From contig CAVTHO010000007.1 of NCBI GenBank assembly GCA_963734545.1, positions 896,001-960,000 of the forward strand: 64,000 bases of DNA, given 5' to 3'. The notes beneath the pieces are model-generated. The model was given only the letters and a program-made list of their open reading frames with translations. It had not been told where the DNA came from and searched no databases. This document shows positions 5,041-64,000 of this stretch, piece by piece. A program made the position numbers and the translations under genes. Each line of letters begins with the position of its first letter. Positions within the stretch are counted from its first letter, which is position 1. Origin of the DNA: an uncultured Spirochaetota bacterium (GTDB lineage Bacteria; Spirochaetota; Spirochaetia; SZUA-6; Fen-1364).

Positions 5041-6369
<1,329 letters not shown>

Positions 6370-6373
<4 letters not shown>

Positions 6374-6816: not shown

Positions 6817-6851
6817 GGCCTTCCCCCTATCCGGTTCCCACCCGCACGCCG

Positions 6852-6869
6852 GTCACGGTATACCGTGAC
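6852..6869. promoter_or_regulatory. Perfect 18-bp palindrome GTCACGGTATACCGTGAC; candidate operator in the accB leader
   Basis: Self-complementary; lies between the predicted promoter and the accB start. Confidence 0.5.
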
Positions 6870-6905
6870 ATTTTTCTGGCTTGTATGCATGACAAGAATA
6901 GTCGG

Positions 6906-6934
6906 AAATTAGCATTTGCCCCGTGCTCTGTCAA
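6906..6934 (-). promoter_or_regulatory. sigma70-type promoter for accBCDA
   Basis: Minus strand TTGACA-N17-TAATTT. Confidence 0.6.
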
Positions 6935-7036
6935 TTCGACACGCTCTCTACCCGATCGCCGCCGGGCCGCGACAGGCTTTTCAGGGAGTCGACTTGGTCA
7001 GGCGAAGACTCTCGATAACGAGGCGCACTCCACGGA

Positions 7037-28965: not shown

Positions 28966-29015
28966 GCGCGTCTCCTTCTGCTCAATCCATTCACTAGGTA
29001 TCCGTCTCATCAGAA

Positions 29016-34426: not shown

Positions 34427-34437
34427 GAGGGAACGAA

Positions 34438-37350: not shown

Positions 37351-37802
37351 CGGTCATCGGTCTCGGCAACTCCGCAATGGGGGACGACGGCATCGGCGTG
37401 GAGATTGCCGAGGTTCTCGGCCGTCTGCCGCGGAGCCCCGGAGAGGGCCTGGAAGTCATCAACGCGGCAGAAGACGCTGTTCTGGCCGGCGCATGTGTCG
37501 CCGAGGGAAAGGACGTCCTGCTGGTGGATGCGGTGGACATGAAGAGTGAACCCGGCGCGTGGCAGGTCTTTTCCGCTCACGATCTTCCACAAGGTCTGGA
37601 GACACTTGAGTGTTCCACGCATTCCCTGTCACTGACGACGGTCATAGAGCTTGCGCGCGCGCTCGGGTGCGCGGATCGGCTGCGTATTCTCGGGGTTCAG
37701 GTCGGGGACGTGCGCCCGGGCCGGTTTCTCTCCCCGCGGGTAAGAGAATGCGTTCCGAAGGTAATCGCAAGGATCAGGGAGGAGGTTGAGGCGCTGTCAT
37801 GA
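37347..37802 (+). CDS. Hydrogenase maturation protease
   Basis: IGLGNSAMGDDGIG, LLVDAV, STH. Confidence 0.9.
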   Translation: MTVIGLGNSAMGDDGIGVEIAEVLGRLPRSPGEGLEVINAAEDAVLAGACVAEGKDVLLVDAVDMKSEPGAWQVFSAHDLPQGLETLECSTHSLSLTTVIELARALGCADRLRILGVQVGDVRPGRFLSPRVRECVPKVIARIREEVEALS

Positions 37803-38182
37803 AATACATACTGATTGTCGACGACGACAGAGACGTATTCGAATCCATGAAGATCGTCCTGGAGGCAGAAGGCTACCGCGTGGAGTGGGCCACGAACGGG
37901 CCCGAGGCAATTCAGAAGGCGAAAGCGTCGAAACCCGACCTGATGATCCTGGATGTGATGATGAACAGCGACGACGAGGGTTTCCAGGTCACCTACAAGA
38001 TGAAGCAGGACAGCGATCTCTCCGGCATCCCGATCGTCATGGTGACGAGCGTCGGCTCCCGTACCGGCTTCTCATTCGACCGCGGGCGCGACGAGGACTT
38101 CCTGCCCGTGAACGAGTTCCTGGAAAAACCGGTGGATCCGCGGGTGCTCGTGGACAAGGTGCGCGAGAACCTGGGACATTAG
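37799..38182 (+). CDS. Single-domain response regulator
   Basis: ILIVDDD, LMILDVMM, IVMVTS, FLEKPVD. Confidence 0.92.
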   Translation: MKYILIVDDDRDVFESMKIVLEAEGYRVEWATNGPEAIQKAKASKPDLMILDVMMNSDDEGFQVTYKMKQDSDLSGIPIVMVTSVGSRTGFSFDRGRDEDFLPVNEFLEKPVDPRVLVDKVRENLGH

Positions 38183-38194
38183 GCTGCGGCCGGC

Positions 38195-39263
38195 TCAGCC
38201 CCCCAGGACCGTCTGCTCGATCCTGCGCACCTGCTCCCGGTACAGCGAGACGATCTGCGTGCCGTAGTCGGCGATGAGCTGGATGATGTTGCGCGGCTTC
38301 TCCCCGTCGTCGCGGCCGTTGATCCTGTCCCCGGCATCACCGAGACCGGGAAGGATGTAGGCCTTGGTGTTCAGCACGGGATCCATCCACAGCGTGTAGA
38401 TCTCCGCCCTCTCCAGCGCGCGCACGATCCGAAGCGCTCCCTTCAGCACCGAGATGACGTTGAAGAACTTGATCGAGCGGGGCCGCACGCCCGCGGTCCA
38501 GCAGGTACTTCACGACCGTGACGAGGCTGCCGCCCGTGGCGTTCATGGGGTCCGCGAAGAACAGGTCCTTTCCGTCCAGGGCGGCGGGGTCGAAGTACGA
38601 GAGGTCGAGGTTCAGCACGTACTCCATGTTCGCCTTCTTCCTTCGTGTCGTCGCGGGAGATCTTGAACAGGGCGAAAGGCGTGACGTACCCGTGGGAGGA
38701 GTACTCCTGGATCTCCTTGGACATGATCATGGCCGGCAGGAGCGCCCCGCGCAGCATGACGCACATGACCGCGTTCTCGATGCGCTCGTCCACGTCGGGG
38801 ATCTTGTGCACGGCGAAGTTCTGCACGGGCAGGGTCACCGGCGTGCGCACGACGATGTGGTTCTTCTTGTCTCGCGTGGACGAGCCGAAGGCGAAGTTGA
38901 ACAGCAGCTCGTAGGCGCGCTGCGTGTAGTAGACGAACTCGGGATGCTCGGTGCGGGCGTCGCGGAGCTTCGCGATCAGGCGCGAGACCTCGCCGTGCAC
39001 CTCCCGCGGCGTCTCGAAGGAGTACACGTGGACGCGCGGTTCGCGGGCCACGATCTCCTGCATCTCGTGGCCCATCTCGTTGGACAGCGCGATGAGGTCC
39101 TCGGTGGCCTTCGTCGTGCTCGCGCCGCGCGGGTCGTCGTCCGCGAGCACCGTGAAGAGCTCGAGGGCTCGCCGAACTGGCGTTCATGTCCTCGATGGTT
39201 TTCTTGTCCCCGGCGGTGAGGTAGCCGTCGAGGTCCTGCGCCTTCAGATATTACCTTTGCCAT
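38195..39263 (-). CDS. Uracil phosphoribosyltransferase-like protein with N-terminal extension (frameshifted in assembly)
   Basis: [22 protein letters not shown] loop, [16 protein letters not shown]. Confidence 0.75.
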
Positions 39264-39330
39264 GACATCCACGGTACAACGGCCCGCCGGGGAGTGGTCA
39301 ATCGAATGCGCCCGGTGTACTTTGCTCACG

Positions 39331-41648
39331 GTGATCAGAAAGCGCTTCCTCTTCCGCGGCACCATCCAGGGGGTCGGATTCCGGCCGGCGATCTACCGCC
39401 TGGCCGTCTCCCTCGGGCTTCCGGGCTTCGTGCAGAACCGCCGATCGGAGGTCGTCGCCGAGGTGCAGGGTGATGAGGAGGCGCCTGGGGCGTTTCGCGT
39501 CCCTGCTCGCCGCCTCCCTTCCTCCTGCCGCGCGCATCGAATGCCGTCACGTCGACGCGTGATCGAGCCGCGGACGGACGAGAACGGGTTTCAGATCGTC
39601 GAGAGCGCCGCGGACGTCTACGCCTTTCCGCCCATCCCGCCCGACCTCCCTGTCTGCGCGGACTGCGCGCGGGAGCTCCTGGATCCCGCGCAACCGCCGG
39701 TACCTCTACCCCTTCATCACCTGCACCCAGTGCGGCCCGCGGTACTCGATCGTGCCAGCGCACGCCCTTCGACCGGGAGAACACCTCGATGCAGCCTTTC
39801 ACGCAGTGCCCGGCGTGCGCGGCCGAGTACACGGACCCGGCGGACCGGCGGTTCCACTCCCAGACGAACTCGTGCGCCGCGTGCGGCCCCACGGCTTGCC
39901 TGCATCGACGCAGGCGGCAGGCCGCCGGGACGGCGATCCGCTCGCCGCGGCCGTCAGCCGCACTCGCGGAGGGAATGATCGTTGCAGTCGAAGGTATCGG
40001 CGGCTTTCACCTTGCCGCCGACCCGAGGCACCCAGGGGCCATGGCAAAGCTCCGACGGGACAAGGAGCGTGAGCGAAAACCGTTCGCGCTCATGGTCCGC
40101 GACATCGAGGAGGCCCGCGCGCTGTGCCATCTCTCGCCGATGGACGAACGGCTGCTCGTGTCTCCCGAAGCGCCCATCGTGATCGCTCCGCGAAGACCGG
40201 GCTCTCCCGCCGTGGCTCCGCGATGTCTCGGACACCGACACGCTCGGCATCATGCTCCCCTACACCCCCCTGCACCTGCTGCTCTTCCGTCACCCGGGCG
40301 TCGACGATCCCCTATGGCGCACCTGGTCATGACCTCGGGCAATCGCGCGAACGAGCCGATCATCACCGATCCCGACGAGGCGCGCGAGAAGCTCGGCGGC
40401 GTGGCGGATGTCTTCCTCTGCCACGATCGTCGGATCGTGTTCCGCACGGATGATTCCATCGTCCGCGCCGGGCGCATCCTCCGCGCCGTTTCTCCTTCGC
40501 AGATCGCGCGGGTACGTGCCGCGCCTGCTCTCGCTGGCCTCCGGATGTGCGCGGCGTCGTGCTGGGGGTCGGAGGCGATCTGAAGAACGCCCCGGCACTG
40601 GCACGCGGGCGCGACGCTCCACCTCTGCCCCTTCAACGGGGACCTGGAGGATCCCGTCACCCTCTCGCAGTTCGATGACACGATCCGGCAGGTCCTGGAG
40701 CTCTACGGCGTCACGCCGGATCTTGTCGTGCGCGACATGCACCCCCTCTACCACTCGTCCCGGTGGGCGCAAAACCTCCCCTGGCACGGGATTGCCATTC
40801 AGCATCATTTCGCCCATGCGCTTTCGGTGATGGCGGAGCACGGGCTGGAAGAAGTCATTGCGCTCACGTTCGACGGCACCGGCTACGGGACCGACGGCAC
40901 GGTCTGGGGCGGAGAGTTCCTCCATGCCACCAGGCAGAGCTTCACGCGCCTGGGGAGCTTCGCGCCCTTTGCGCTCCCGGGAGGGGAGGCAGCGGTCCTG
41001 AACCCGGCACGCATCGCATTCGCCCTGCTGGCGGAGAGCAGGGCGCCCGAATCGATGAAAGGGGCAGGAATTCCAGGGATAGACGCCCGCCAGGGGGAGT
41101 TGCTGCGTGCCATGCTCGACCGCGGCGTGAACTGCCCTGTCACCACCTCACTCGGGCGGGTATTCGACGCCGCTGCCGCCATCCTCGGCCTCGTCGAGCA
41201 GGTGACCTATGAAGGAGAGGGACCGATCAGGCTCGAGGGTTTCGGCCTGAGCGCATTCACTCCGGGGAATTCGGGGCTCGCTGAAAAGCAAGCCGCCGCG
41301 CTCCTTCCTTTTCTACCGTCTACGGGAGACGAGCGGCTCTTTCTCATCGACCCTCGCCCTCTCCTCTCTCATCTGCTGACGGAGCGGAAAGCGCGCGCTG
41401 TCCCGGCGCTTTCCCTGGTTTTTCACGAGGCCATCGCTCGCGCGTCCCTGCAGGGCGCGAGGAAGCTGCGAAGCGCCACGGGGATTTCCCGGATCGCCCT
41501 CTCGGGAGGAGTCTTCCAGAATCTCCTCCTGCGCGAGCTTCTGGTGCCCCTCTTGATCAAAGAAGGATTTGAGGTTTTCCTCAATGTGCAGGTGCCTCCG
41601 GGAGACGGCGGGCTCTCCGTCGGGCAGGCGTGGTTCCAGGAAAGCTGA
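39331..41648 (+). CDS. hypF: Hydrogenase maturation carbamoyltransferase (frameshifted in assembly)
   Basis: [14 protein letters not shown] and CPAC Zn fingers, [41 protein letters not shown]. Confidence 0.92.
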
Positions 41649-41657
41649 GGTGTGCCA

Positions 41658-41897
41658 ATGTGCCTTGCGACTCCGATGCGGATCGAGAAACTGCTCGAGG
41701 GAGGGCGCGCAATCGTCTCCCAGGGAAACGTGCATGTGGAGGTGAACGTGTCGCTTCTCCAGAATCCGAAGCCGGGGGACCACGTCATCATCCACGCGGG
41801 GTTCGCGATAGAGACGCTGTCACTCGTCGAGGCGGAGGAACGGCTCGCCCTGTTCCGCAAGCTCGCCGAGCTTTCAGGAGAGACGGGCGGCGCATGA
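41658..41897 (+). CDS. hypC: Hydrogenase maturation chaperone
   Basis: MCLATP, GDHVIIHAGFAI. Confidence 0.95.
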   Translation: MCLATPMRIEKLLEGGRAIVSQGNVHVEVNVSLLQNPKPGDHVIIHAGFAIETLSLVEAEERLALFRKLAELSGETGGA

Positions 41898-42974
41898 GCG
41901 GGGAGCGGGAGCTGGCCTCCGCGCTGGTCGCCGAGATCGAAAGGACCGCTGCCGGCGATCGGTCGTCCCGTTCGAATCATGGAGGTCTGCGGCACCCATA
42001 CCGTGGAGCTTCGGCGGCAGGGGATCCATTCACTTCTCCCGCGCGGCATCGCACTCGTGTCGGGGCCCGGCTGCCCGGTGTGCGTGACACCGGCGGGCTA
42101 CGTGGACAACGCCCTCTCGCTCGCCGAGTCGGGGCGCGCCGTCATTGCGAGCTTCGGAGACATGCTGAAGGTCCCCGGCTCGTCCGGTCGCTCGCTCGCT
42201 TCGCTTTCCGCCGGCGGGCAGGCGAAGCTCGTGTACTCTCCCGCTGAGCTCGTCGGGATTGCCCGCACGTCCGGCGCGCCCGTGGTCTTCCTTGCCGTGG
42301 GATTCGAGACGACGATCCCCACCGTCATGTCAGCGCTTCTGGAGGCTCGGGACAAGGGAATCGACAACCTCTATCTCTACACGGCTTTCAAGACCGTGCC
42401 TCCTGCGCTCCGCTTCCTCCTTGCCAACCCGGAGCATGGCATCGACGGGTTTCTCCTCCCCGGGCACGTGTCCGTTGTCATCGGAGCAGACGCCTATGGG
42501 TTCCTCGAAGGTCCGGAAGGAAGACCGGGGGTCATCACCGGCTTCGAGCCCCTCGATATGCTCCTTGGCATACTCCTGGTTCTGCGCCAGGTCCGCAAGG
42601 GCACACGCCGCGTGGAAAACGCCTACCCGCGCGCCGTGCGGCCCGGCGGTAATCCGCGGGCACGCGGCATGATGGAGCGCACGCTCGAGCCCCGGGACGA
42701 AACGTGGCGCGGGCTGGGTGTGATTCCCGGCGCGGCGCTCGGTCTGAAGCCCGCGCTTGCAGAGAGTGATGCGGCAAAGGTCTTCTCGCTTCCCGCGGCG
42801 GCGGATGCCGAAGCGCCGGGCTGCATCTGCGCGCGGGTCGTGGCAGGCATGGCGACGCCGCCCCAGTGCCCGCTTTTCGGCGCCCGGTGCACTCCCGATG
42901 ACCCCGTGGGACCCTGCATGGTTTCTTCCGAGGGAACATGTGCCGCGTATTTCCGCTACGGAGACGGGATGTGA
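41894..42974 (+). CDS. hypD: Hydrogenase maturation protein
   Basis: MEVCGTHT, GPGCPVC, GFETT, PGHVS, GPCMVSSEGTCAA. Confidence 0.95.
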
Positions 42975-43980
42975 AGGAAGAAGGCCTCATCCGGCTCGAG
43001 CACGGCAGCGGCGGCGCGCTCTCGCGCGACCTTGTCGAATCCGTGATCCATCCCTTCTTCCGCTCCGCGTCCTACCCCGAGCTTTCCGACTCGAGTCCCG
43101 TGGAGGCCGGTTCCGAATTCCTGATGACGACAGACGGCTACGTGGTCGATCCGCCTTTCTTTCCCGGCGGAGACATCGGCGGCCTTTCCGTCTGGGGCAC
43201 CTGCAACGATCTGGCAGTTTGCGGCGCAAAGCCGATCTGTGTGTCCCTGGCGCTCGTTCTCGAAGAGGGATTTGCCGTCGCTGACCTGAAACGTGTCCTC
43301 GGGTCCGCGGCCGCGGCGGCGAGGGAGGCGGACACGCGGATCGTGACAGGAGACACCAAGGTGGTTCCCCGGGGAAAGGGGGAGGAATCTTCGTCACAAC
43401 GGCTGGCCTGGGAAGACGCACATTCCCGGGGGTGCTGTCCCCCTCACGCATCCGGGAAGGTGACAGCGTGATCATTTCCGGTCCCATTGGCTCGCACGGA
43501 TTGACCGTGCTCGCTGCGCGTGAGTCGCTTCCGGTCGCCGGCGCGCTGCGCTCCGACATGGCCTTTCTCTACCCTCTGGCGAGCCTGCTCTTCCCCCTGG
43601 GGGATTCACTGCGTTTTCTCCGCGATGCGACCCGGGGCGGCATCGCCGCTGTGCTGAACGAGGCGGTGCACGGTGCGGCCTGGGGAATCAGGATGGGGGA
43701 AGCGGAGATCCCGGTCACGGAGGAAGTACGCACGGTGGCGGACCTTCTCGGCCTGAATCCGCTCGAGATCGCAAATGAGGGAGTATTCGTCGCGGTTGTG
43801 GCTGCTCCGGCGGAAGCGGCCGCGCTGCAGGCCTTGCACGCACACCCCCTGGGCAGGGCCGCGCGCCGTGTCGGACATGTCTCCATCGAGAATCCAGGTA
43901 CTGTTCTCATGACCACGAGGATCGGCGGGACAAGGAGAGTTGATTTTCCGAGGGGGCTTCTGCTGCCCCGGATCTGCTGA
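42971..43980 (+). CDS. hypE: Hydrogenase maturation dehydratase; frameshift near 43380
   Basis: HGSGG, GDIG, NDLA, TGDTKVV, RDATRGG, ANEG, C-terminal LPRIC. Confidence 0.95.
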
Positions 43981-45096: not shown

Positions 45097-47406
45097 TTGG
45101 CGGAGGAGGCAGGGGAAATTCCAGCCCATATGCGGGAGTTGGTTCTCTTCACGCTCGAGGACACTCACTACGGCATCTGGAGGGATCAGATCCTCTCGAT
45201 GGAGGCTGTACAGTCGCTGCATCGACTGCCGTTCGCCAGATCGAGCCTGACCGTGCTGTCGGTATATGGCGGGCAGACCCAGACACTGGCCGACCTGCCG
45301 CTGTGCCTGGGGCATCCGGCAACCAGGGACGCGAAAGGGGCGAACGCCTGGCTGTTGTCCGAACGGGAGTCGATCCGCGGATTCCTCGTGAGCGGAGAAA
45401 GCGCGTCAGTCCAGGTATCTCCGGAGACTCTTGTTCGCGTACCCGACTTTCTGCGCGGCCTTCCAATAGAAGCTTTTTTCGACCACGACTCTCTCCCGGT
45501 GCCCGTGCTCAACGTCTCCGCCATTCATGAGCGAGTACGCAAAGCCGAGCGGGAGAAGCCCGCGCCCCCCCTGGCCCTGCATGCGCTGCCGGCCCGGCAA
45601 TCGAGTCCTGCAGCCAGGTTCAGGGTTTTTACTTCATCAGGGAGCCTCTTCGCCGCTCCCGGCGCCGACGTTGCAGAGGTGACCTTGAGCGGCCGCCGGG
45701 TTGCGCGCCTGCCGCTCCTCCCGCCGAACATCGAGGGAGTGGCGCTTTCGCACAACAGCGTCATTCCTGTCGTCGATCTTGCCCATCGCGTAAGCGGAAA
45801 AAACAGCCAGGAGAACTCCCGGATCCTCGAAGCGAAACTGGACGGTGCCGCCCTCGGCTTTCTCATCGACGAGGATGAGGGGGAATGGACTTCGGCAGAT
45901 GTCATGGTCAAAGAGCTCCCGCCGGTCCTGCGCGCGCCGTGGATGGGCGCGGCGGTGCTCCGAGGTGCACACGTCGCCCCCCTCATCGACCTCGGCGCTC
46001 TGCTGTCCAGCCCTGCCAGGAGCGCAAGCGGCAGCCCGCATCCACGTCCCTATTCGCCTGATTCACGGTTTCCCGCTGTGTTCGGGCACCAGCCGGTCGA
46101 GGTCATCGAGTTTTCCGCTCTCGGCACGATCTTTGCGGTTCCACAGAGTGAAGCGGCGGATGTCCTGCCTTGTCAGCCGTTCCAGGAGTTCCCCCTGGCC
46201 ACCGGGCTCGTGGCAGGCCTGGCGGATTTCGGCGGCGAGCTTGTCCCCGTCATCGACCTGGCCCGGATTGGCGGAGAATCTCCGCAGAGAACCGCAGATT
46301 GGCGGATGATCGTGCTCAAGAACGGAGATTTCAGAGCGCTCGTCGTGTGCGCAAGCACGCGCGCCGCGCGCACGCTCGAGCGCGAGGTGCAGCGTGACGT
46401 GCCTGTTGTGCTCCCCTTCCCGGTTGTCTACGGGTGCTATACCGACGGGGAGGCCGTCCGGCTCGTCCTGAATATCGAAGAGCTCACGGTACATTACCAC
46501 CAGTCCGACGCCGCGCTTCTTCTGCCTGTTCTTGCGAAGGCCGCGGGAGAAGGCCCGATAGGCGCCCCGGTCACCCACCATGCGCAGGAGCCGGTGCTGC
46601 CTGCAATGGTTCCCACGGAGCCTGCCGTTCCTGCCCACGCTGTCGAGAGACCTGTTTCTCCCGGCCAGGATCTGGCGGAACCTGTTGTTCCGGCGCAGGA
46701 CATGCCGCAGCCTCCCCTCTCCGCCCCTGCCGCAGAGGAAGGATCTCTGACAGAGCTCCCGATGCCTTCCGAACCCCCGCTCCCGGCTGAGCTCGAGCTG
46801 AGCTCTCTGGAGCCAAGTCCCGAAGAGCCTGCTCCCGCGGAATCCGTTCCGCTGGAGCCCAGCCCGGTGGCCGAACGGCAGGCGCCGACCGAATCGGCTC
46901 CTTCCCTTGGGGATGAATTTGGATTCGAGCCGGTTCAGCCGGCTGAAACAGCCGCCCCGCGGACGCCCACCCCTGCCGGGCCCGAACCTGCGCGACAGGA
47001 TGAAAGGCCGATCTCTCGATCAAAGAAGCCCGCGCCCGCTCGCGGGAGAGTAGTGAGGCGAGTGCTGTTTGCGGCGGCAATCGCCATACTCGTGGCCGCG
47101 GGCGTCGTTGCGGGTCTCCGTCTTGGAATATTCCTGCCCCGGCCGGCCGTGCCGGCTGCACCGACCGCACCTGCTGTGCCGGTCGCACCGGCCGCACCGA
47201 CCGACCTGAAGTCGGACGCCACGACAAGTACGGAGTCCTCGCCTCCCGCGGATACGCTCTATGTCGTGAAACAGGGCGATACGCTGTGGGACATCGCTGC
47301 CCGGTTCACGGGGGACCCGCACAACTTCCGCGGCCTCGCCGCACACAATGGAATAGCGGATCCTGATGTGATTTCTCCCGGGCAGGTGATCAAGGTGCCG
47401 CGCTAG
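45097..47406 (+). CDS. Triple CheW-like domains, Pro/Glu-rich linker, TM helix and C-terminal LysM domain
   Basis: Three repeats ending QTLADL / VIPVVDL / LVPVIDL; RGRVVRR followed by VLFAAAIAILVAAGVVAGL; YVVKQGDTLWDIAARF...NGIADPDVISPGQVIKVP. Confidence 0.8.
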   Translation: MAEEAGEIPAHMRELVLFTLEDTHYGIWRDQILSMEAVQSLHRLPFARSSLTVLSVYGGQTQTLADLPLCLGHPATRDAKGANAWLLSERESIRGFLVSGESASVQVSPETLVRVPDFLRGLPIEAFFDHDSLPVPVLNVSAIHERVRKAEREKPAPPLALHALPARQSSPAARFRVFTSSGSLFAAPGADVAEVTLSGRRVARLPLLPPNIEGVALSHNSVIPVVDLAHRVSGKNSQENSRILEAKLDGAALGFLIDEDEGEWTSADVMVKELPPVLRAPWMGAAVLRGAHVAPLIDLGALLSSPARSASGSPHPRPYSPDSRFPAVFGHQPVEVIEFSALGTIFAVPQSEAADVLPCQPFQEFPLATGLVAGLADFGGELVPVIDLARIGGESPQRTADWRMIVLKNGDFRALVVCASTRAARTLEREVQRDVPVVLPFPVVYGCYTDGEAVRLVLNIEELTVHYHQSDAALLLPVLAKAAGEGPIGAPVTHHAQEPVLPAMVPTEPAVPAHAVERPVSPGQDLAEPVVPAQDMPQPPLSAPAAEEGSLTELPMPSEPPLPAELELSSLEPSPEEPAPAESVPLEPSPVAERQAPTESAPSLGDEFGFEPVQPAETAAPRTPTPAGPEPARQDERPISRSKKPAPARGRVVRRVLFAAAIAILVAAGVVAGLRLGIFLPRPAVPAAPTAPAVPVAPAAPTDLKSDATTSTESSPPADTLYVVKQGDTLWDIAARFTGDPHNFRGLAAHNGIADPDVISPGQVIKVPR

Positions 47407-47481: not shown

Positions 47482-47608
47482 ACTCGCTCGCCCCTCGCCA
47501 TCCAACTCCGCGGAGTACCGCGGAAGGTCTACGGGCTCGCTTCCGTCCATCCCTGGACTCGCTCGCCCTCGGCATCCAACTCCGCGGAGTACCGCGGAAG
47601 GCCTACGG
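47482..47608 (-). repeat. Two tandem copies of a GTAG-type REP-like palindromic element
   Basis: Copies at 47482-47534 and 47557-47608; minus strand GTAG(A/G)CCTTCCGCGGTACTCCGCGGAGTTGGATG...GCGAGCGAGT. Confidence 0.75.
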
Positions 47609-48616
47609 ATACGCTCTCTTGAACATCGGCACGCGCGCTTCGGCGTTCAGGGCAAAGCTCGAGAGCTTCCCCGCGACAAGCGCATGATAGCCGATCCCGG
47701 CGACCATTGCGGCGTTGTCCGTGCAAAGCTTCAGAGACGGAAAGATCACCTCGAGGCCCTTCTCCGCTGCCATTCGTTCTCGAAGGTAGCTGTTCGCCGC
47801 GACGCCGCCTCCGGCAACGATCCTGCGCAGGCCCGTGTCCTCCGCGGCGGCCAGGGCACGGTCCACCAGAATGTCGATGGCGGCCTTCTGGAATGAGGCG
47901 GCGATATTGGCCAGGCTCTTTTCCGACTTTCCGTTCCAGAACTGCGCGCTCTGATGAATGACCGCGGTCTTCAGCCCCGAATACGAAACATCGTAGAATG
48001 CTTCCCCCTTGTGCAGCGAGGGCTTCGGGAACTGGAACGCGCGGGGATCTCCCGTCCGTGCGAGCCGGTCAATGGCCACGCCGCCCGGGAAGCCCATCTG
48101 GTAGTATTTGGCCACCTTGTCGAAAGCCTCCCCGCATGCGTCGTCGATCGTCGTGCCGAGGACCTCGATCGAGTCGCTGCGCTCCACGCGGGCGATGATC
48201 GTATGGCCTCCCGAGACCAGTACGCCCAGGTAGGGGTAGGAGATATCCTGCTCGAGATGAGGCGCGTACAGGTGCGCGAGGATATGGTCCACACCGACCA
48301 GCGGCTTTCCCAGGGCCCAGGCAAGACCCTTGGCAAATGAGAGGCCGACCAGGAGCGAGCCGATGAGCCCGGGCCGGAATGTCACGGCAACGGCGTCGAG
48401 CGCCTCCGCGTTCACGCCGGCCTCCGCGAGCGCATCCTGCACGACTGGTTTGATCCATTCGATGTGCTTCCGGGAGGCGATCTCCGGGACCACGCCATAG
48501 TAGGGCTTGTGAAAATCCACCTGGCTCAGGACGATGTTGCTGAGGATGCGTCGACCGTCCTCGACCACCGCCGCCGCGCACTCGTCACAGGAGCTTTCGA
48601 TTCCGAGAATCCTCAC
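47603..48616 (-). CDS. tsaD: tRNA N6-threonylcarbamoyltransferase
   Basis: LGIESSCDE, GVVPEIASRKH, HILAH, VSGGHT, DDACGEAFDK, SYSGLKT, CTDNAAM. Confidence 0.96.
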   Translation of the reverse strand: MRILGIESSCDECAAAVVEDGRRILSNIVLSQVDFHKPYYGVVPEIASRKHIEWIKPVVQDALAEAGVNAEALDAVAVTFRPGLIGSLLVGLSFAKGLAWALGKPLVGVDHILAHLYAPHLEQDISYPYLGVLVSGGHTIIARVERSDSIEVLGTTIDDACGEAFDKVAKYYQMGFPGGVAIDRLARTGDPRAFQFPKPSLHKGEAFYDVSYSGLKTAVIHQSAQFWNGKSEKSLANIAASFQKAAIDILVDRALAAAEDTGLRRIVAGGGVAANSYLRERMAAEKGLEVIFPSLKLCTDNAAMVAGIGYHALVAGKLSSFALNAEARVPMFKRAYP

Positions 48617-49506
48617 TGTCCAGTTTCCCCTTCCCTTTCACCAAGGACTTCCGTCAGCCGGGCAAGCCGGACACCCTCGGCGGAGAGGTTCCTCTCCTCG
48701 GCGCGCAGTATATCGATGACCCCCTTGTTCTGTACATGCCCGATCAGGACCGAAAAGCCGCGCATCTTCGCTTCCGAGACTCCCTTGACGAACGCGGAGG
48801 CAATATCCGCCTCCGCAGTGCTCTTGTCGACGAAGACGTCACGCTGAAGAAAAGGAACATCGAGCTCACGCGCCACCCGGGGACCGACCGTATCCCCCGT
48901 GGTCCTGCTGTCCACGAAGAATTTTCCCTCCCGCTTCAGAAAGCGCATGACAGTGCTCATCAAAGCCTCGTCGGCCGTTGCCCGGGAGCCCATGTGATTG
49001 TTCATACCCTGCGCGCCCGGAACCGATTCAAACGCGGCAGCCAGCAGCGATTCGATCTCGCCCGGGCTCTGGTCAACGCGCAGCGCCCCGGGCCCCGGGT
49101 CCTCACCCCCGGTGGCTTCCATGGGACAGTGCAGGATCAGGTCTTTGCCCGCCGCGAGCACGCGCCGCGCCGCCTCCCGACTGTGCGGAAGGTTGGGAAG
49201 GACCGCGATGGTCATGGGTCCGGGGAGGTCGAGGAAGGCCTGCAGCTCGCCGAGGTTGTAGCCGGCGTCGTCTATGATGACCGCAAGCAGTCCCTGCTTC
49301 TCGGGGCGAGGATGACCGGGAGGGCTGGTTCTCGACGTGTCAGCCTGCGGAGCAACAACCGCGGGAGGCCGGTGCGTCGCTGTGGGGGGTACAGTGCCCC
49401 TGCCCGGCTCAGGAGGGCAGGCGACGAGAAGGGCGACAATGCCGGCAACAAGGAGTATGAGGAGGATGGCGGCGAACCGAGCTTTCGGGAGGGGGCGGGA
49501 ACGCAT
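48613..49506 (-). CDS. Divergent polysaccharide deacetylase (YibQ-like)
   Basis: AVIIDDAG, LHCPME, NNHMGS, FVDSRT, RDVFVD, LIGH. Confidence 0.9.
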   Translation of the reverse strand: MRSRPLPKARFAAILLILLVAGIVALLVACPPEPGRGTVPPTATHRPPAVVAPQADTSRTSPPGHPRPEKQGLLAVIIDDAGYNLGELQAFLDLPGPMTIAVLPNLPHSREAARRVLAAGKDLILHCPMEATGGEDPGPGALRVDQSPGEIESLLAAAFESVPGAQGMNNHMGSRATADEALMSTVMRFLKREGKFFVDSRTTGDTVGPRVARELDVPFLQRDVFVDKSTAEADIASAFVKGVSEAKMRGFSVLIGHVQNKGVIDILRAEERNLSAEGVRLARLTEVLGEREGETGQ

Positions 49507-49522
49507 GGTCAACTCCGGAGCC

Positions 49523-50368
49523 TCAGCTGTAGACGTACTCCTTCAGCTCATCGGAGAAGCTCCTGAGTTTCTTGAGCGCGCGGATTTCGATCTGCCGCAC
49601 CGTTTCGGGCGAGATCCCGAGCTCGTCTCCGATCTTCTTCAGCGTGTAGCGCTTGCCGCTGGCAAAAGAGAATCGGTACAACAGAATCTGCCGTTCTTTC
49701 TCCTGCAGGCCGTCGAGAAACTTGAGCGTGTCCTCTCTCAATGTCTTCTGCATGAGCTCCAGCTCGGGGTTGAAGGACATATCTTCAACGACATCGTGAA
49801 GGCTGCCGGAATCTCCCGCGAGGGTGGAATCCAGGGAGGCAACGCTGATGGAAGAGTTGATGATTGACGCGACCTCGTCTTCCTGCAGCCCGATTTCCTC
49901 CGCGATCTCCAGGAGTGTAGGCTCGCGCATGAGCACCTGCGAAAGATTGTTGTACACCTTGCTGATCTTTCGCAGCTTTTCCTCCTGACGGTGAGGAAGC
50001 CTGATCACTCTCTTCTTGTTGGACAACGAGCGAACGATCGACTGCTTGATCCACCAGGACGCATACGTGCTGAAACGCACCTGCTTCCTGAAATCGTACT
50101 TTGATGCCGCTCTCATGAGGCCGAGGTTGCCCTCCTGAATGAGATCGAGAATCGACACTTCCGGCGTAAGGTAGCTCTTCGCAATCCGCACCACCAGGCG
50201 GAGGTTGGACTCTATCAGGAGCGTTCGTGCCTGCTCGTCTCCGGCCTGTATCCGGCGGGAAAGCTCTAATTCTTGTTCGAACGTCAGGAGCTTTGCCTTT
50301 TTGATCTGGCTGAAGTAGGCTTTGAGGTTATCTTCGAAGGAAGTCGAAATCTCCCTCTTCCTGCTCAT
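49523..50368 (-). CDS. Alternative sigma70-family factor lacking region 1.1 (RpoS-like)
   Basis: SNLRLVVRIAK, DLIQEGNLGL, RFSTYASWWIKQ, IRLP, TLKKIGDELGISPETVRQIE; about 281 aa. Confidence 0.88.
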   Translation of the reverse strand: MSRKREISTSFEDNLKAYFSQIKKAKLLTFEQELELSRRIQAGDEQARTLLIESNLRLVVRIAKSYLTPEVSILDLIQEGNLGLMRAASKYDFRKQVRFSTYASWWIKQSIVRSLSNKKRVIRLPHRQEEKLRKISKVYNNLSQVLMREPTLLEIAEEIGLQEDEVASIINSSISVASLDSTLAGDSGSLHDVVEDMSFNPELELMQKTLREDTLKFLDGLQEKERQILLYRFSFASGKRYTLKKIGDELGISPETVRQIEIRALKKLRSFSDELKEYVYS

Positions 50369-50391
50369 CAAACACTCCTGGAAAGAACAAA

Positions 50392-50407
50392 AGCAAAATC
50401 CATGCCA
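50392..50407 (-). promoter_or_regulatory. sigma54 (-24/-12) promoter for the RpoS-like gene
   Basis: Minus strand TGGCATGGATTTTGCT (GG-N10-GC; consensus TGGCAC-N5-TTGCW), just upstream of RBS AGGAG. Confidence 0.75.
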
Positions 50408-50525
50408 CTAGGGAGATGTACAACAATCAAAGTATTTCTTTATCTGGCAAATAGATACTTAACATCCTTTCCGGGCGACAATACATCCAGCTCAATTGTA
50501 CTTTTTTTGATACAATCTTCAAGTA

Positions 50526-50828
50526 TTATTTTGATGATACTTGCCTGTATATCATGTCGGAAAGGCCGAACTGGGCGGTTTCTGCCATCTTCTTCGCGTA
50601 CTCGTCGTAGAGCATTCCCTCGAAAATGTCCTGGCTCATCCCCCCGTTGAGCAGATCATCTCCTTTGTGGACGGTTTTCCGCATAACGTCAAGCATCTGT
50701 TTGATGAACAGCGCCTCGAAATCCTGGCACGCCTTGTACAGCTCGCTGTTCCGGTCTATTGCCGGCTTCTTCGGCTGCGAGCTGTTCATCGGGTATGCAT
50801 ATACGTTGTTCAGGCTTGTGACCTGCAT
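50526..50828 (-). CDS. flgJ: Short FlgJ (rod-binding domain only)
   Basis: LYKACQDFEALFIKQMLDVMRKT, IFEGMLYDEYA. Confidence 0.88.
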   Translation of the reverse strand: MQVTSLNNVYAYPMNSSQPKKPAIDRNSELYKACQDFEALFIKQMLDVMRKTVHKGDDLLNGGMSQDIFEGMLYDEYAKKMAETAQFGLSDMIYRQVSSK

Positions 50829-50839
50829 GTCCCGCCCTT

Positions 50840-51853
50840 TCACATGACAATGAGGCTGCCGAACAGGGCCCCCGCCCTTTCGACGGCCTGGAGCACGCCG
50901 ATTATCACGTCAGCTTTCAAACCCACGGCCTTGAGAGCAGAAACGAAGTCATCCACCGTCGTGGTATCCCCTATCACGAACACATCCGGCGGTCCGGAGG
51001 CGGCTTGCGATGCCGCACCCACGGTGACCCGCGCCGTGCGGTAGGAGACCGCCACCTTTCCGATCCGGACTTTTTCTCCCATGACAATGACGCCCCCGGC
51101 GGCGTTGATGACCACCCTGCCGTCTGAGTCCGGAGTGACGGTGAGCGCTTCAAGCTGGGCGAGAAACCCGACCGGGTTCGCCCTGCTCGCCTGGGGGAGC
51201 TGCACTTCGATGAGTGACGCGTCACGGCTCGTGACGGAGATGCCGGAGAAGGCCGCCTCGATCGCCTTCTGCACGGCGCTGGCCGTCACGAAGTCCGGGT
51301 TGCGCAGGAGGATGGAGACGACATTGTTGTCCAGGTACTGGGACACGACTTCCTTTTCCACGATGGCGCCCGCGGCAATGGCCCCCACGGTCTTCGCGCC
51401 GTTCTGCTCCTGCGTCGTCATCACGCGCCCCTGCGCAACAGCGTAGGTCTGGCCGTTGGCTGCCTGGAGATTCGCCTGCAGGAGGATGCCGCCGTCCAGG
51501 TCCCGCGCGTCACCGATACTGGAGACCGTGACATCGATTCGGTCCCCGGCCCTTGCAAATGGGGGCAGCTCCGCATTCACCATGACTACGGCTGCATTCT
51601 TGCTCCGGATGTCCTGGGGAGCCACGGATACCCCGAAACTCGCCACGAGAGAGGAAAGGGAGGAGCGCAGAAGAGACGAGGTGGACGAATCCCCTTTGCC
51701 ATTGAGCCCGGTGACGAGTCCGAGCCCGAGGATCTGGTTTCCCCTTACGCCCCGCAGGGTGGCGATATCCTTGATCCGAACGGTGGGAACCGCCATGGCG
51801 GAGACACCTGCCGCCGCGATGAACAGAAGAGCCAGGAATCTACGGGAGCTCAA
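50840..51853 (-). CDS. flgI: Flagellar P-ring protein
   Basis: RIKDIA, NQILGLGLVTGLNGKGD, KNAAVVMV, SSIGDA, YAVAQG, PDFVTA. Confidence 0.92.
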   Translation of the reverse strand: MSSRRFLALLFIAAAGVSAMAVPTVRIKDIATLRGVRGNQILGLGLVTGLNGKGDSSTSSLLRSSLSSLVASFGVSVAPQDIRSKNAAVVMVNAELPPFARAGDRIDVTVSSIGDARDLDGGILLQANLQAANGQTYAVAQGRVMTTQEQNGAKTVGAIAAGAIVEKEVVSQYLDNNVVSILLRNPDFVTASAVQKAIEAAFSGISVTSRDASLIEVQLPQASRANPVGFLAQLEALTVTPDSDGRVVINAAGGVIVMGEKVRIGKVAVSYRTARVTVGAASQAASGPPDVFVIGDTTTVDDFVSALKAVGLKADVIIGVLQAVERAGALFGSLIVM

Positions 51854-52698
51854 CTTCCACCACCTTCGCGTCGACAACCCGGCCGATGAAGCTTCTCTGG
51901 CTGTCCGCCACAAACACCGCTACCTTGCCGCCCATCGCGCGCCGTTGCCATGGCTTTCCCTGGCATCTCGATTGTGATGGGTCCTTTGCGGAAGATCACG
52001 TCCACCGGAGCTCCCGATCTCACGCCGTCCGTCGAACCGGATGCACCCGCGGGCGCCGAGAATGAAACCCTGCCCGAAACCGAGCTGCCGCTCGACCCTG
52101 TCAGCGAATAGGAAACCTCGACGGATCCATTGGCGGCCTTCACAACCTGGAAGAGGGGATTCCCATCGATGGGAAGGCTCCCTTTGAGCTGGCTTTGCAC
52201 GAGCGAGAGCTCCGTGCACGCGGCCCCCACCAGGCCCTGGGAGGACAGGAAATCCACGAGACGCGTGAGCAGGTATGTCTCCTCCTCGGGCAGCGCACCG
52301 CGGGGAACCACAATGGTGCGCGAGCCGACGATGATCGAATCCCTTCCGAACACGGCTTCGAGCTGCTCCCGATAGAGAGCCGCGGGGATGAGCAGAACCT
52401 TGTCTCCTGCGACGGCGATGCTACGGGCGAGCGTCTCGCGCGCCGCGGCGGGGATGTCCCCTGCGGCACGCACCAGGTCGCCGAGGCTGACGTCACCGGG
52501 ATCTGCCGTAACAAGCCGATTGACGTAGAGTGTCGTTCCCTGCGCCTCGACGACACCTGCAAGAGAGAGCGCGAGCACGAGAACTGGCAGGAAAAGAATC
52601 CGCGGGGTACCGCGATGCAAGAGAATCCGCGGGGTGCCGCGATGCAAGAGAATCCGCGGGGTGCCGCGATGCTCACATCGGCGCGGAGCACGCCTCAT
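51840..52698 (-). CDS. Probable P-ring chaperone FlgA-like protein; frameshift near 51935
   Basis: Lies between flgG and flgI; C-terminal VRSGAPVDVIFRKGPITIEMPGKAM resembles the FlgA C-domain; signal-peptide h-region present. Confidence 0.6.
52594..52672. repeat. Three tandem 27-bp palindromic units AAGAGAATCCGCGGGGT(A/G)CCGCGATGC within the flgA-like 5' end
   Basis: Directly visible; encodes (HRGTPRILL)x3, last unit ending ILF, on the minus strand. Confidence 0.9.
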
Positions 52699-52708
52699 CG
52701 CGCCGACC

Positions 52709-53503
52709 TTACCTCTTGAGCGAGGTTGCCGTGGCGAGCATGGAGTCAGAGGTCTGGATGGCCCTCGAGTTCAGCTCGTAGGCTCTCTGGGCCACTATCA
52801 TGTTCACCATTTCCTTGACCACGGACACGTTGGACATTTCCAGGAACTTCTGCTGCACCTTGCCCATGCCGTCGAAACCCGGGCGGCCGGGGATTGCGTC
52901 ACCGGATGCATTCGTGGTCTTCATCAGGTTCTCGCCGATCGATTCGAGACCCGCCGGATTCACGAAGCGGTAGATCTCAAGCTGGCCGACCTCGATCGGA
53001 TCGTCGCTTCCGGCAACCTTGACCGTGATCCTTCCATCCTGCGAGATGCTCAGGCTCTCGTTCACGAATCCTTCGGGCAGGATGACCTCGGGGGAGAGCT
53101 TGTAGCCGCCCGATGTCACCAGCTGGCCGTTCGAATCGATCTTGAACGACCCGTCGCGGGTATAGCCGTACGTGCCGTCAAACTGCGTCACGCGGAAAAA
53201 CCCCTCGCCCTCGATGGCCATGTCAGCGGGGTTCCCCGTGGCCTGGAGCGCACCCTGCGTGAATATCTTCTGGGTGGCGGCAGGCTTGACGCCGTGGCCT
53301 ACCTGCACGCCGGTGGGAACCACGGTGGCTTCCGTGGCGGGAGTGCCCGCGAGCCTCTCGGTCTGGTAGAGCAGGTCTTCGAAATCGGCCCGCATCTGCT
53401 TGAAGCCCGTCGTGTTCACGTTCGCCAGGTTATTGGAGATCGTGTCGATGTTGAATTGCTGCCCCGTCATTCCCGACGCGGCCGTCCACAGTGATCTCAT
53501 CAT
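52709..53503 (-). CDS. flgG: Flagellar distal rod protein
   Basis: MMRSLWTAASGM, ISNNLANVNTTGFK, FEDLLYQ, YTRDGSF, LEMSNV, AQRAYELNSR. Confidence 0.95.
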   Translation of the reverse strand: MMRSLWTAASGMTGQQFNIDTISNNLANVNTTGFKQMRADFEDLLYQTERLAGTPATEATVVPTGVQVGHGVKPAATQKIFTQGALQATGNPADMAIEGEGFFRVTQFDGTYGYTRDGSFKIDSNGQLVTSGGYKLSPEVILPEGFVNESLSISQDGRITVKVAGSDDPIEVGQLEIYRFVNPAGLESIGENLMKTTNASGDAIPGRPGFDGMGKVQQKFLEMSNVSVVKEMVNMIVAQRAYELNSRAIQTSDSMLATATSLKR

Positions 53504-54348
53504 ACTTTCACCACCTCATTCCACAGCTTGCCGATCAGAGCATCCTCGGTCTGGATCGTCTTCTGATTCGCGTCGTAGGCCCGGTTCACTTCGATCATCT
53601 CGACCATTTCCTGGACCGCGTTGACGTTGGCCCCTTCGAGAAATCCCTGCCGCACCTTGGGCCGCGTGTCGGGACCCATGATCTCCGCGGGACCTGATTC
53701 ATCGGTGGCGCGCCAGTAGGAGTTGCCCTGCTTTTCCAGGTAGCGCCTCCGCGAGACGTCCACGATCTTCAGCCTGTCCACCTTCTCGATGTTCTCCCAC
53801 TGGTTTTCCGCCTGGCTCACGAGGCGCTTGTCATCCGTAGCGAACGTCGAGTTCTGCCAGACGGTTCCATCCTGATCGATCACGAAGTTGTTTTTCTTCA
53901 GCTTGATGGGGCCGTTCTCGCCGAGCACGAAGTCGCCGGTCTTGGAGACCAGGTAGCCGTCGCTGTTGACCAGGAACGCCCCGTTGCGCGTGAGCCGCTC
54001 CCCCTGGGGTGTCTGCACGGTCATGAAGCCGCTTCCCTCGATGGCAAGGTCGAAGTCGTTCTCCGTCTGCTTCAGCGTACCCTGGGTGAAATTGGTATAG
54101 ACCTCGTTGGTCTCCACGCCAGTTCCCAGGGTCCCCACGATAGGCGCCGTGTCCACGGAGCCGAACGGGAATTTGTACATCCCATCGTCGTTCATGCGGC
54201 GCATGAGCATCTCGGGAAACGCCTTCTGGATGGCGGTGTCCTTCTTGTAGCCGTTGAGGTCGACATTCGCCAGGTTGTTGGCGATCTCGTCCAGGCGGTT
54301 CTGCTGAACGTTCATGCCGCTGGCGGCGGTAAATAGCCCTCGAACCAC
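53500..54348 (-). CDS. flgF: Flagellar basal-body rod protein FlgF/FlhO
   Basis: GLFTAASGM, ANNLANV, TRNGAF, QGFLEGANVN, NRAYDANQK. Confidence 0.85.
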   Translation of the reverse strand: MVRGLFTAASGMNVQQNRLDEIANNLANVDLNGYKKDTAIQKAFPEMLMRRMNDDGMYKFPFGSVDTAPIVGTLGTGVETNEVYTNFTQGTLKQTENDFDLAIEGSGFMTVQTPQGERLTRNGAFLVNSDGYLVSKTGDFVLGENGPIKLKKNNFVIDQDGTVWQNSTFATDDKRLVSQAENQWENIEKVDRLKIVDVSRRRYLEKQGNSYWRATDESGPAEIMGPDTRPKVRQGFLEGANVNAVQEMVEMIEVNRAYDANQKTIQTEDALIGKLWNEVVKV

Positions 54349-55185: not shown

Positions 55186-55365
55186 TTTGCATCGTTTCCC
55201 CGGGCCGGAAAGCTGACCTCACGAATCCCCGGGCGGAGTGTCCGACAAGGAGGTGCCGCTGTCATCGAAGGACGGGTGATGTTCAAGAGGGGCCCGACAA
55301 GCCATCCGTTTGGTTTGAGCTGGATATAAGAACGCTCTCAGAACAACTTGATGAAGGAGGTTAGA

Positions 55366-56520
55366 ATGAAGCGTTTTCTGTCACTTACTGCGCTCGTGCT
55401 GGTGCTGATGATCGCTGTCATCGGCTGCCAGCAGGCACCCAAGGAACTGAAGGTCGCCGTACTGGCGCCCCTGTCGGGCCCGGTGCCGACGTTCGGTGTT
55501 TCGACGCGCGACGGCGCGCTGCTCGCCATAGATGAATGGAACGCCAAGGGCGGCGTTCTCGGCATGAAGATCACGACGATCGTCGAGGACAGCCAGTGCA
55601 CCCCGGACCCCGCGGTCAATGCGGCCAACAAGGTCATCAACCAGGACAAGGTGCACTACATCATCGGTGAGGTGTGCTCGAAGGCGTCCATCCCCATCTC
55701 CGAGATCGCCAATGCGGCCAAGGTGATCCAGATGAGCCCGACCTCCACCAACACCTCGGTGACGGTGGACAAGAATGGCGCCACGAAGGCGTACATCTTC
55801 AGGGCCTGCTTCATCGATCCGTTCCAGGGCAAGGTCGGTGCGACCTTCGCCTTCAACAACCTGAAGGCCAAGAAGGCATTCGTCATGTCTGACCAGAGCA
55901 ACGACTACGTGAAGGGCCTCGCCGAAGCCTTCGAAGCCACCTTCACCGAGCTCGGCGGCACAGATCGTGGGCAAGGAGAACTACACGGGAACGGACACCG
56001 ACTTCTCCGCCATCCTCGCCAAGGTGAAGAACGCCAAGCCCGACATCGTGTACCTGCCTGACTACTACAACGTCGTCAACCTCGCCACCAAGCAGGCCAA
56101 GGAAAAGGGCATCATCGCCCCGTTCATGGGCGGTGATGGTTGGGATTCCGCGGACCTCGACACCAAGGCCAGCGACGGCGGGTACTACACCAACCACTAT
56201 TCCGCTGACGATCAGCGCCCCGAGGTTCAGAATTTCCTCAAGGCCTACGGCGCCAAGTACAAGGACGACTTCGGGCAAGGCCATGGTTCCCGACGCCCTG
56301 GCGGCCCTCGCGTACGACGCCACGAACCTGCTCCTGACCGCGGTGAAGAACGCCGGCGGCGACAACACCGACAAGGTGAAGGCCGCCCTCGAGGGCATCT
56401 CCTTCAACGCGGTGTCCGGCAAGATCACCTATCGACGCCCAGCACAACCCTGTGAAGGGCGCGGTCATCCTGCACGTCAAGGGCGGAAAGGTCATATTCG
56501 ACTCGTTCGTCTCGCCCTGA
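55366..56520 (+). CDS. Branched-chain amino acid ABC transporter substrate-binding lipoprotein, LivJ/LivK family (frameshifted)
   Basis: Lipobox VIGC, APLSG, IGEVCS, SPTSTN, FRACFIDPFQG, GGDGWDS, LAYDA. Confidence 0.9.
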
Positions 56521-63695: not shown

Positions 63696-64000
63696 TCATC
63701 CCTGGATGAAGGCCTCGAGCTCGCTCGACACGCGCAGCTGCTTCAGCTTCACCAGCGCGCGCTCCTGGATCTGGCGGACGCGCTCCCGGGTGATGCCGAG
63801 GATCTTCCCCGTCTCCTCCAGCGTGAACGGTCCTTCGCCGTCGAGCCCGAAGCGCAGCTTGATGATGCGCATCTCCCTCTCGCTGAGCTTGTCCAGGACC
63901 ATGGCGAGCGTGTCCTGGAGGGCCAGGGCGAACGCCGATTCGAAGGGTTTCTCGGATGCGTCGTCCCGGATGAGGTCCGCCAGCCGGGTCGGGTTTTCTC
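63696..64000 (-). CDS. sigma70-family factor, C-terminal region 4 (starts beyond the window)
   Basis: LSEREMRIIKLRFGL, TLEETGKILGITRERVRQIQ. Confidence 0.85.
   Translation of the reverse strand, partial: ENPTRLADLIRDDASEKPFESAFALALQDTLAMVLDKLSEREMRIIKLRFGLDGEGPFTLEETGKILGITRERVRQIQERALVKLKQLRVSSELEAFIQG

Follow-up and report, generated by a model that had tools for sequence, protein, structure and literature searches.

What kind of sigma factor is encoded directly behind the flagellar rod and P-ring genes of an environmental spirochaete, and what switches its gene on? We address this question for a 64,000-base stretch of DNA from an uncultured Spirochaetota bacterium (positions 896,001 to 960,000 of contig CAVTHO010000007.1; the whole stretch is called the window below), in which an open reading frame (ORF) for a 281-residue protein of the sigma-70 family lies on the minus strand at 49523-50368. 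The RpoN-RpoS pathway is the central switch in the life cycle of the Lyme disease agent, and its origin is disputed. In Borrelia burgdorferi, flgI and flgJ are reported to lie directly 5' of rpoS (PMC1976401, PMC6117026), the same position that the sigma gene has here. We consider it likely that the gene in the window is driven by an activator-dependent sigma-54 promoter and encodes an alternative sigma factor of the family to which Borrelia RpoS belongs.

Sigma-54 promoters have a TGGCAC-N5-TTGCW-like consensus with GG and GC doublets ten bases apart. The sequence TGGCATGGATTTTGCT, separated by 23 nucleotides (nt) from the ATG of the sigma gene (50368), has this form. The original prediction had placed a -24/-12 box just upstream of the ribosome-binding site of this gene, and the box is indeed there and unique: it is the only match to TGGCAYNNNNNTTGCW (TGGCAY-N5-TTGCW) on either strand of the window. 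Among 100 shuffles that preserve dinucleotide composition, 6 contained at least one match; the mean was 0.06. The box lies between the stop codon of a FlgJ-like gene (50526-50528) and the sigma gene, in an intergenic region of about 40% GC compared to 62.8% for the window. A Shine-Dalgarno sequence, AGGAG (50375-50379), stands 6 nt ahead of the ATG; the ORF as called extends one codon further, to a TTG at 50371. Transcription is predicted to start at 50379-50381, leaving a leader of 11-13 nt. The original prediction expected a start near 50381, a position 12 nt on from the C that ends the GC doublet (50393).

The box is conserved together with the gene. We scanned a genome collection with the sigma protein and obtained, as the best 80 loci, nine from spirochaetes (L001-L008 and L011, apparently from fen, aquifer and sediment metagenome-assembled genomes (MAGs) and an uncultured Treponema) and 71 from elsewhere, which are RpoD genes of other phyla. 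Sigma proteins of L001-L008 are 85, 66, 67, 62, 61, 59, 56, and 52% identical to that of the window and that of L011 58%, and the GC content of the nine loci ranges from 37 to 68%. A check of the box across Spirochaetia, which the original prediction had proposed, found it in all nine: each locus has a single match to TGGCA-N6-[TC]TGC, located on the coding strand and 28-55 nt ahead of the start codon of sigma (TTGC in eight, CTGC in L007). The 71 non-spirochaete loci (555,101 base pairs (bp)) contain 10 matches, none of them ahead of the sigma homologue. When the ten upstream regions (window plus nine) were aligned, the TGGCA and TGC columns were invariant and the flanks variable.

Gene order is conserved to different extents around this promoter. 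On the minus strand of the window, Pfam identifies flgF/flhO-like, flgG, an ORF of no known family, flgI, FlgJ-like, sigma, deacetylase, and tsaD genes, in the order originally read from the sequence. The label "flgA-like" given to the third of them was not confirmed, because its support consists of a sub-threshold match to the NCBIfam model flgA_cterm (E 9e-4, 19 bits; cut-off 54.65) and of its position; the FlgA proteins of L003 and L004 had no tblastn match to this ORF or elsewhere in the window. In L002-L005, ChapFlgA ORFs fill the position, and the order is flgF-flgG-flgA-flgI-flgJ-sigma-deacetylase, continued by tsaD in L003-L005; the L002 contig ends ahead of tsaD. L006 has flgF-flgG-sigma-deacetylase-tsaD, L007 has cell-wall genes followed by sigma-deacetylase, and L008 and L011 have different neighbours. 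The box is kept in L007, L008, and L011, where flagellar genes are absent upstream, and thus travels with the sigma gene. With a box in all nine loci, the flgF-to-deacetylase order in four of them and tsaD reached in three, the arrangement exists outside the tick-borne spirochaetes, as had been proposed. In L006 (1734-4840), sigma follows flgG with no flgA, flgI, or flgJ detected between them, while the box and the palindrome described below are retained; the P-ring genes appear to have been lost or moved in this lineage.

The protein itself is assigned to no existing NCBIfam model. Pfam matches to Sigma70_r1_2, r2, r3, and r4 all exceed their cut-offs; 13 residues precede region 1.2 and region 1.1 is absent, as in group 2-like sigma factors, which are dispensable relatives of the primary one, and the length of 281 residues is that of most close homologues. 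No NCBIfam model reaches its cut-off: the cyanobacterial-type RpoD subfamily model scores 236.5 bits (cut-off 384.5), the rpoS models TIGR02394 (rpoS_proteo) and NF004207 score 232.9 (378.7) and 228.1 (394), the RpoD model scores 222.1 (572), and FliA and WhiG models are not among the 25 best matches. Against solved structures, a SigA is best with 193.8 bits, and RpoS and RpoD of Escherichia coli score nearly alike (178.1-178.2 and 177.6, respectively). We built a family profile from the nine spirochaete orthologues, searched it over 1.84 billion representatives and considered the best 150. About 60 proteins, mostly of 270-290 residues, came first at 280-398 bits, and long RpoD-type proteins came next at about 265-275 bits. 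On the sigma factors of E. coli, the same profile scores 232 (RpoS), 226 (RpoD), 118 (RpoH), and 82 bits (FliA). The representative ranked fourth, P0124 (434 residues), is almost identical to E. coli RpoS in its aligned part; it owes its rank to having been matched in two stretches and is probably a fused or chimeric prediction.

Phylogeny and a residue signature set the short proteins apart. We computed a quick tree of 79 rows and a careful one of 41 rows with eight spirochaete sequences. In the careful tree, a 98/98 branch separates 22 short sigma factors, including all eight spirochaete sequences, from the remaining rows; among these, RpoD and RpoS of E. coli fall together in a clade of 17 rows (96/81). 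The quick tree likewise puts E. coli RpoS in the RpoD-type clade. When the short family was instead grouped with E. coli RpoS, the approximately unbiased test gave p = 0.082, so that this grouping is disfavoured but not rejected. Among 37 short representatives with the motif EGNxGL, 30 have R-K at +42/+43 after it, within the sequence RLPxRK (two have K-K and one A-K). The residues at these positions are H-M, H-V, or similar in the RpoD-type clade, with H-M in E. coli RpoD and H-I in E. coli RpoS. In the window they are R127 and Q128. The position of E. coli K173 is occupied by E130 in the window and by glutamate in 10/10 spirochaete sequences.

A second sigma gene lies about 13 kb away. The C-terminal 100 residues of an RpoD-type protein are encoded at 63696-63998 (minus strand), cut by the end of the window; the best model is RpoD NF004208 (93.7 bits, profile positions 534-630), and we regard this gene as the probable housekeeping rpoD. 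A separate primary-type sigma factor is therefore present, and the 281-residue protein is not the only one of its kind. We conclude that this protein belongs to a separate, spirochaete-wide family of short (about 280-residue) alternative sigma factors and is neither a proteobacterial RpoS nor the housekeeping sigma. Like the proteins covered by TIGR02394 and NF004207, it lacks region 1.1, keeps regions 1.2 to 4, and is of similar size. In contrast to them, it misses the cut-offs of both models, has E130 at the K173 position, and in the free trees falls in the short clade, whereas E. coli RpoS falls in the RpoD-type clade. The term "RpoS-like" of the original prediction is thus not sustained in its proteobacterial sense.

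Whether it is sustained in the sense of Borrelia is a separate matter. What the original prediction says of Borrelia, an rpoS gene after flgI-flgJ with a -24/-12 promoter, agrees with what is printed in PMC1976401 and PMC6117026: Burtnick et al. (2007, PMC1976401) describe a sigma-54 promoter between flgJ and rpoS, 62 bp before the start codon, with transcription starting 14 bp after the GC doublet and lost in an rpoN mutant. The sigma gene of the window and of L002-L005 likewise follows flgI-flgJ directly, and its promoter likewise lies between flgJ and sigma, with 28-55 nt in the relatives in place of the 62 bp; the leader in Borrelia is longer than the one predicted here. At the protein level, Caimano et al. 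(2019, PMC6719511) discuss the role of K173 in region 3.1 of RpoS and place I79 of BB0771 (equivalent to E. coli I128) and, near the K173 position, R121 and K122. By this published numbering, the offsets between I79, R121, and K122 are those of the RK pair at +42/+43 in the RLPxRK family, which is indirect evidence that BB0771 belongs to it. The window protein and BB0771 are both short sigma factors without region 1.1 and without lysine at the K173 position; two to three residues ahead of it, BB0771 and the family consensus have the RK pair, the window protein R127 and Q128. Judged from synteny, promoter, and signature, the RLPxRK family is most likely the one that holds Borrelia RpoS. Chiang and Schellhorn, as well as Hengge, doubted that BB0771 is a true RpoS (cited in PMC6719511), and in the account of Schellhorn (2020, PMC7527412), Borrelia RpoS arose independently of proteobacterial RpoS, which agrees with our placement of the window protein outside the latter.

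The relatives also have a palindrome in common, TGTATAC-N4-GTATACA, about 100 nt upstream of the box; it is perfect in L008 (TGTATACAAAAGTATACA), and its centre lies 94-106 nt from the GG doublet in seven loci. At a threshold of at least 11 of 14 positions, 9 matches fall in the 2,250 bp that precede the nine sigma genes, compared to 2 in 64,235 bp of the same nine loci elsewhere and 18 in the other loci (555,101 bp). When at least 12 positions are required, the counts are 5, 0, and 0. In L003 and L005, a second copy lies 33-34 nt further upstream. The six other relaxed sigma-54 boxes in the window (at most two mismatches) have no palindrome upstream (0/6). We propose, from its sequence and placement, that the palindrome is a candidate enhancer, that is, an activator-binding site. 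Between it and the box is a second, AT-rich dyad (AAGTATCTATTT and AAAGAAATACTT in the window), centred 34-47 nt upstream of the GG doublet in 10/10 loci and 11/12 complementary in L006 and L008, a degree of symmetry that AT-rich DNA readily yields; it is possibly an architectural or second-regulator site. An RNA structure was considered for the intergenic region and gained no support: the consensus fold (-2.9 kcal/mol) shows nothing beyond the palindrome, the single-sequence z-score is -1.9, and Rfam has no match in 49000-51000 at E up to 1. Conservation lies in the sequence and not in compensating pairs, which favours protein-binding DNA sites. Separately, CGGCACGGTGCTTGCA at 28924-28939 (minus strand) differs at one position from the sigma-54 consensus. 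It falls within a FlaA ORF (28225-29010), some 70 nt past the 5' end as called, and could be a chance match, or a promoter if the true start codon of FlaA is further downstream.

The mechanism suggested by these elements is as follows. The -24/-12 box would be the main regulated promoter of the sigma gene, at which RNA polymerase with sigma-54 (RpoN) would bind as a closed complex. An ATP-dependent enhancer-binding protein of the Rrp2/NtrC type would open the complex, probably from the dyad about 100 nt upstream, and the intervening AT-rich dyad could aid DNA looping. The transcript would start near 50379-50381 with a very short leader and cover the sigma gene, probably together with the deacetylase gene and tsaD. 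These two genes are probably co-transcribed with it: the deacetylase gene (its product 42% identical to the L003 counterpart) begins about 10-16 nt past the sigma stop codon, and the tsaD start overlaps the deacetylase stop codon by 4 nt. The new sigma factor would then redirect RNA polymerase to its own regulon. In its layout, this resembles the NtrC-type promoter glnAp2, the textbook case, with a -24/-12 box, a dyad-symmetric site about 100 nt upstream, a second copy about three helical turns further up in some relatives, and an AT-rich element in between, where an IHF site often sits. It differs in that the candidate half-site, TGTATAC, is not an NtrC site. It also differs from Borrelia, where activation of rpoS by Rrp2 is reported to need no enhancer, with no Rrp2 binding within 238 bp upstream (PMC1976401), whereas the free-living relatives keep a strong palindrome. 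We noticed no BosR-type TAAATTAAAT repeat of the kind described in PMC3037356 at these loci, for which no dedicated search was made.

The relatives supply some information on the factors that this mechanism would use. L008 carries a full rpoN gene (370.5 bits against a cut-off of 277.35), 2.2 kb downstream from its sigma orthologue; the arrangement there (5749-7467) is rpoN followed by an hpf-like gene, with a SpoIID/TPR gene on the other strand between sigma and rpoN, and a Sua5/TsaC-like gene is found upstream of sigma. The L008 RpoN has at least 120 relatives, those listed all being from Treponema-like lineages, and such relatives are named in many Treponema and Spirochaetaceae genomes. No activator gene is found in the flanks of the nine spirochaete loci, and no Rrp2/Hk2-like pair in the window. 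The window does encode a histidine kinase (24994-26163, minus strand) with an N-terminal cyclic-nucleotide-binding domain and a core nearest to AtoS/ZraS, all matches being under cut-off; in other bacteria, AtoS and ZraS pair with sigma-54 activators, and the gene of this kinase has no activator gene next to it.

Several observations weigh against our proposal. The window contains neither a Sigma54 domain (rpoN) nor a Sigma54_activat protein. Its own copy of the palindrome, TTGTATCAAAAAAAGTACAA, is degenerate (fewer than 10 of 14 positions), its exact form being uncertain because it includes a run of seven A in an assembly with many broken reading frames, and it is overlapped by a sigma-70-like promoter match, TTGAAG-16-TACAAT. 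The predicted leader of only 11-13 nt is short, and in L005 there is almost none; in that locus (3946-3976), just 12 nt lie between the box and the start codon, a codon shared with L004, so that the predicted transcript is nearly leaderless. Q128 stands where the RLPxRK family has lysine, and source databases name the close homologues RpoD or SigA. No protein resembling that of Borrelia in length and composition is among the 150 best representatives. There is no terminator-like site between flgJ and the sigma gene. Finally, tsaD is needed at all times and is apparently in the same operon, which means that other promoters or flagellar read-through must also feed this stretch.

One rival reading makes the housekeeping polymerase the main source of sigma transcripts, whether it starts at the sigma-70-like promoter or reads through from flgI-flgJ. 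The palindrome would then be an operator or promoter element for this route rather than a sigma-54 enhancer, and the -24/-12 box of minor or condition-specific use. A consensus scan found three sigma-70-like sites in the region where 0.5 were expected, and the right half of the palindrome has the form TACnnT (A at 2, T at 6) in 8/10 aligned sequences; together with the match in the window, this makes a housekeeping promoter or operator a real alternative for the palindrome block. The need for additional transcription also has a parallel in Borrelia, for which Arnold et al. (2018, PMC6117026) report flgI-flgJ read-through and an RpoD-dependent promoter inside flgJ. However, this reading offers no account of why the GG and GC doublets are invariant and keep a fixed spacing in ten loci that differ widely in base composition. 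The left half of the palindrome would sit in the spacer of the promoter, yet it is conserved, too, like the right half. The two routes can also coexist, as they do in Borrelia, and as the principal source of transcription we find the sigma-70 route improbable. About equally unlikely, in our estimate, is that the promoter and the cascade are real and the protein is not an orthologue of Borrelia RpoS, either with separate short sigma factors having come under sigma-54 beside flagellar genes or with the Borrelia gene having been replaced. Borrelia is absent from the best 80 loci of the scan, no 268-residue AT-rich protein with isoleucine at 79 is among the best 150 representatives (by length, composition, and motif offsets), and a query with the AT-rich representative P0125 returned only Spirochaetes MAG proteins. 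At the residue level, the link to BB0771 runs through published numbering, and Caimano et al. (PMC6719511) describe BB0771 as grouping loosely with beta-, delta-, and zeta-proteobacterial homologues in a SEED tree. On the other hand, the position after flgI-flgJ, the intergenic sigma-54 promoter, and the RK offsets would then all be coincidence. The names RpoD, SigA, and "primary sigma factor" carried by close homologues, the nearest Atlas clusters (RpoD/SigA), and the best structure match would fit a housekeeping sigma factor, a reading to which we give next to no credence: RpoD models remain far under cut-off, region 1.1 is absent, and a separate RpoD-type gene end lies in the window. Moreover, a promoter that requires an activator is unexpected for a housekeeping sigma. 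We thus retain the sigma-54 promoter driving a Borrelia-RpoS-family sigma as the likely account.

Coordinates of the sigma locus are given in Table 1. The FlgJ-like protein is under the cut-offs of the NCBIfam FlgJ models and 51% identical to its L003 counterpart. In Borrelia, the genes downstream of rpoS are presumably a deacetylase gene and tsaD as well; the papers list bb0770 and bb0769 without functions.

Table 1. Features of the sigma locus in the window, in order of transcription
Feature	Position	Strand	Basis
Flagellar rod protein, flgF/flhO-like; first gene of the syntenic block	53500-54348	-	Pfam Flg_bb_rod, LlgE_F_G_D1, Flg_bbr_C
flgG, distal rod protein	52709-53503	-	Pfam Flg_bb_rod, LlgE_F_G_D1, Flg_bbr_C; 264-residue counterpart in L002-L006
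ORF of unknown family at the flgA position of the relatives	51850-52698	-	No Pfam match
flgI, P-ring protein	50840-51913	-	Pfam FlgI, 287 bits
FlgJ-like rod-binding protein, 105 residues, without muramidase domain	50526-50843	-	Pfam Rod-binding, 63 bits
Sigma-70-like promoter match TTGAAG-16 nt-TACAAT, overlapping the degenerate dyad	50495-50522	-	Consensus scan, 9/12 matches
Degenerate dyad TTGTATCAAAAAAAGTACAA, aligned with the palindrome of the relatives	50496-50515	-	Alignment; centred about 100 nt upstream of the -24 GG
Second, AT-rich dyad AAGTATCTATTT-7 nt-AAAGAAATACTT	50430-50460	-	10/12 complementary; about 40 nt upstream of GG; conserved alignment columns
-24/-12 (sigma-54 type) box TGGCATGGATTTTGCT	50392-50407	-	GG 50405-50406, GC 50393-50394
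Alternative sigma-70-family factor, short RLPxRK family, 281 residues	49523-50368	-	Pfam, NCBIfam, homologues, trees, signature
Divergent polysaccharide deacetylase (Polysacc_deac_2)	48613-49512	-	Pfam, 230.6 bits; same neighbour in L002-L007
tsaD (tRNA t6A synthesis)	47603-48616	-	Pfam TsaD, 310 bits; downstream of sigma in L001, L003-L006

A 769-residue protein with an unusual combination of three CheW-like stretches and a C-terminal LysM domain is encoded at 45097-47406 (plus strand), convergent with the sigma operon at its tsaD end. Elsewhere in the window, a [NiFe]-hydrogenase-like cluster (33872-43980) comprises Fer4_22, FAD-binding, and small- and large-subunit pieces and a HycI protease; after these come a lone response-regulator receiver and the maturation genes hypF, hypD, and hypE. 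Several genes are split, with successive parts of one Pfam profile in adjacent ORFs: an acetyl-CoA carboxylase set (3429-6242), a TPP enzyme (14173-16294), hypF (39789-41648), hypE (42938-43980), and a LivK-like periplasmic binding protein (55348-56455). This suggests a frameshift-rich assembly or decaying genes.

A circuit of this kind is already known from Borrelia; new are the same promoter in ten free-living or Treponema-related loci, a candidate enhancer that Borrelia lacks, and a family assignment for the sigma factor. We found no description of the cascade outside Borrelia in the full-text literature searched, in which subscription journals are thinly covered. Unlike Borrelia, the bacterium studied here is an environmental spirochaete of 63% GC, whose regulon thus cannot be the tick and mammal lipoprotein set. 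The sigma-to-sigma cascade looks older than the tick-borne lifestyle. A bolder version, which we offer tentatively as a serious possibility rather than as our expectation, is that the cascade from sigma-54 to the short sigma is ancestral to the class Spirochaetia, tied to the flagellar rod/P-ring operon and ancestrally enhancer-dependent, and that the enhancer was lost secondarily in Borrelia. The palindrome, with its second copy in some lineages, would then be the binding site of an Rrp2-like activator, and the AT-rich dyad near -64 would serve to bend the DNA or to bind a second regulator. If true, this would answer the long-standing question why Rrp2 keeps a DNA-binding domain yet needs no site at rpoS, and would end the argument about where BB0771 comes from by making it a member of the distinct RLPxRK family and not an RpoS of the proteobacterial type. 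The palindrome is a testable candidate for the ancestral activator site, which has been sought in Borrelia without success. If the same gene, in the same place and with the same kind of promoter, is present in free-living Spirochaetia and in relatives of Treponema, the circuit is an inherited one that was later turned to host adaptation, and non-pathogenic relatives could then be used for its study.

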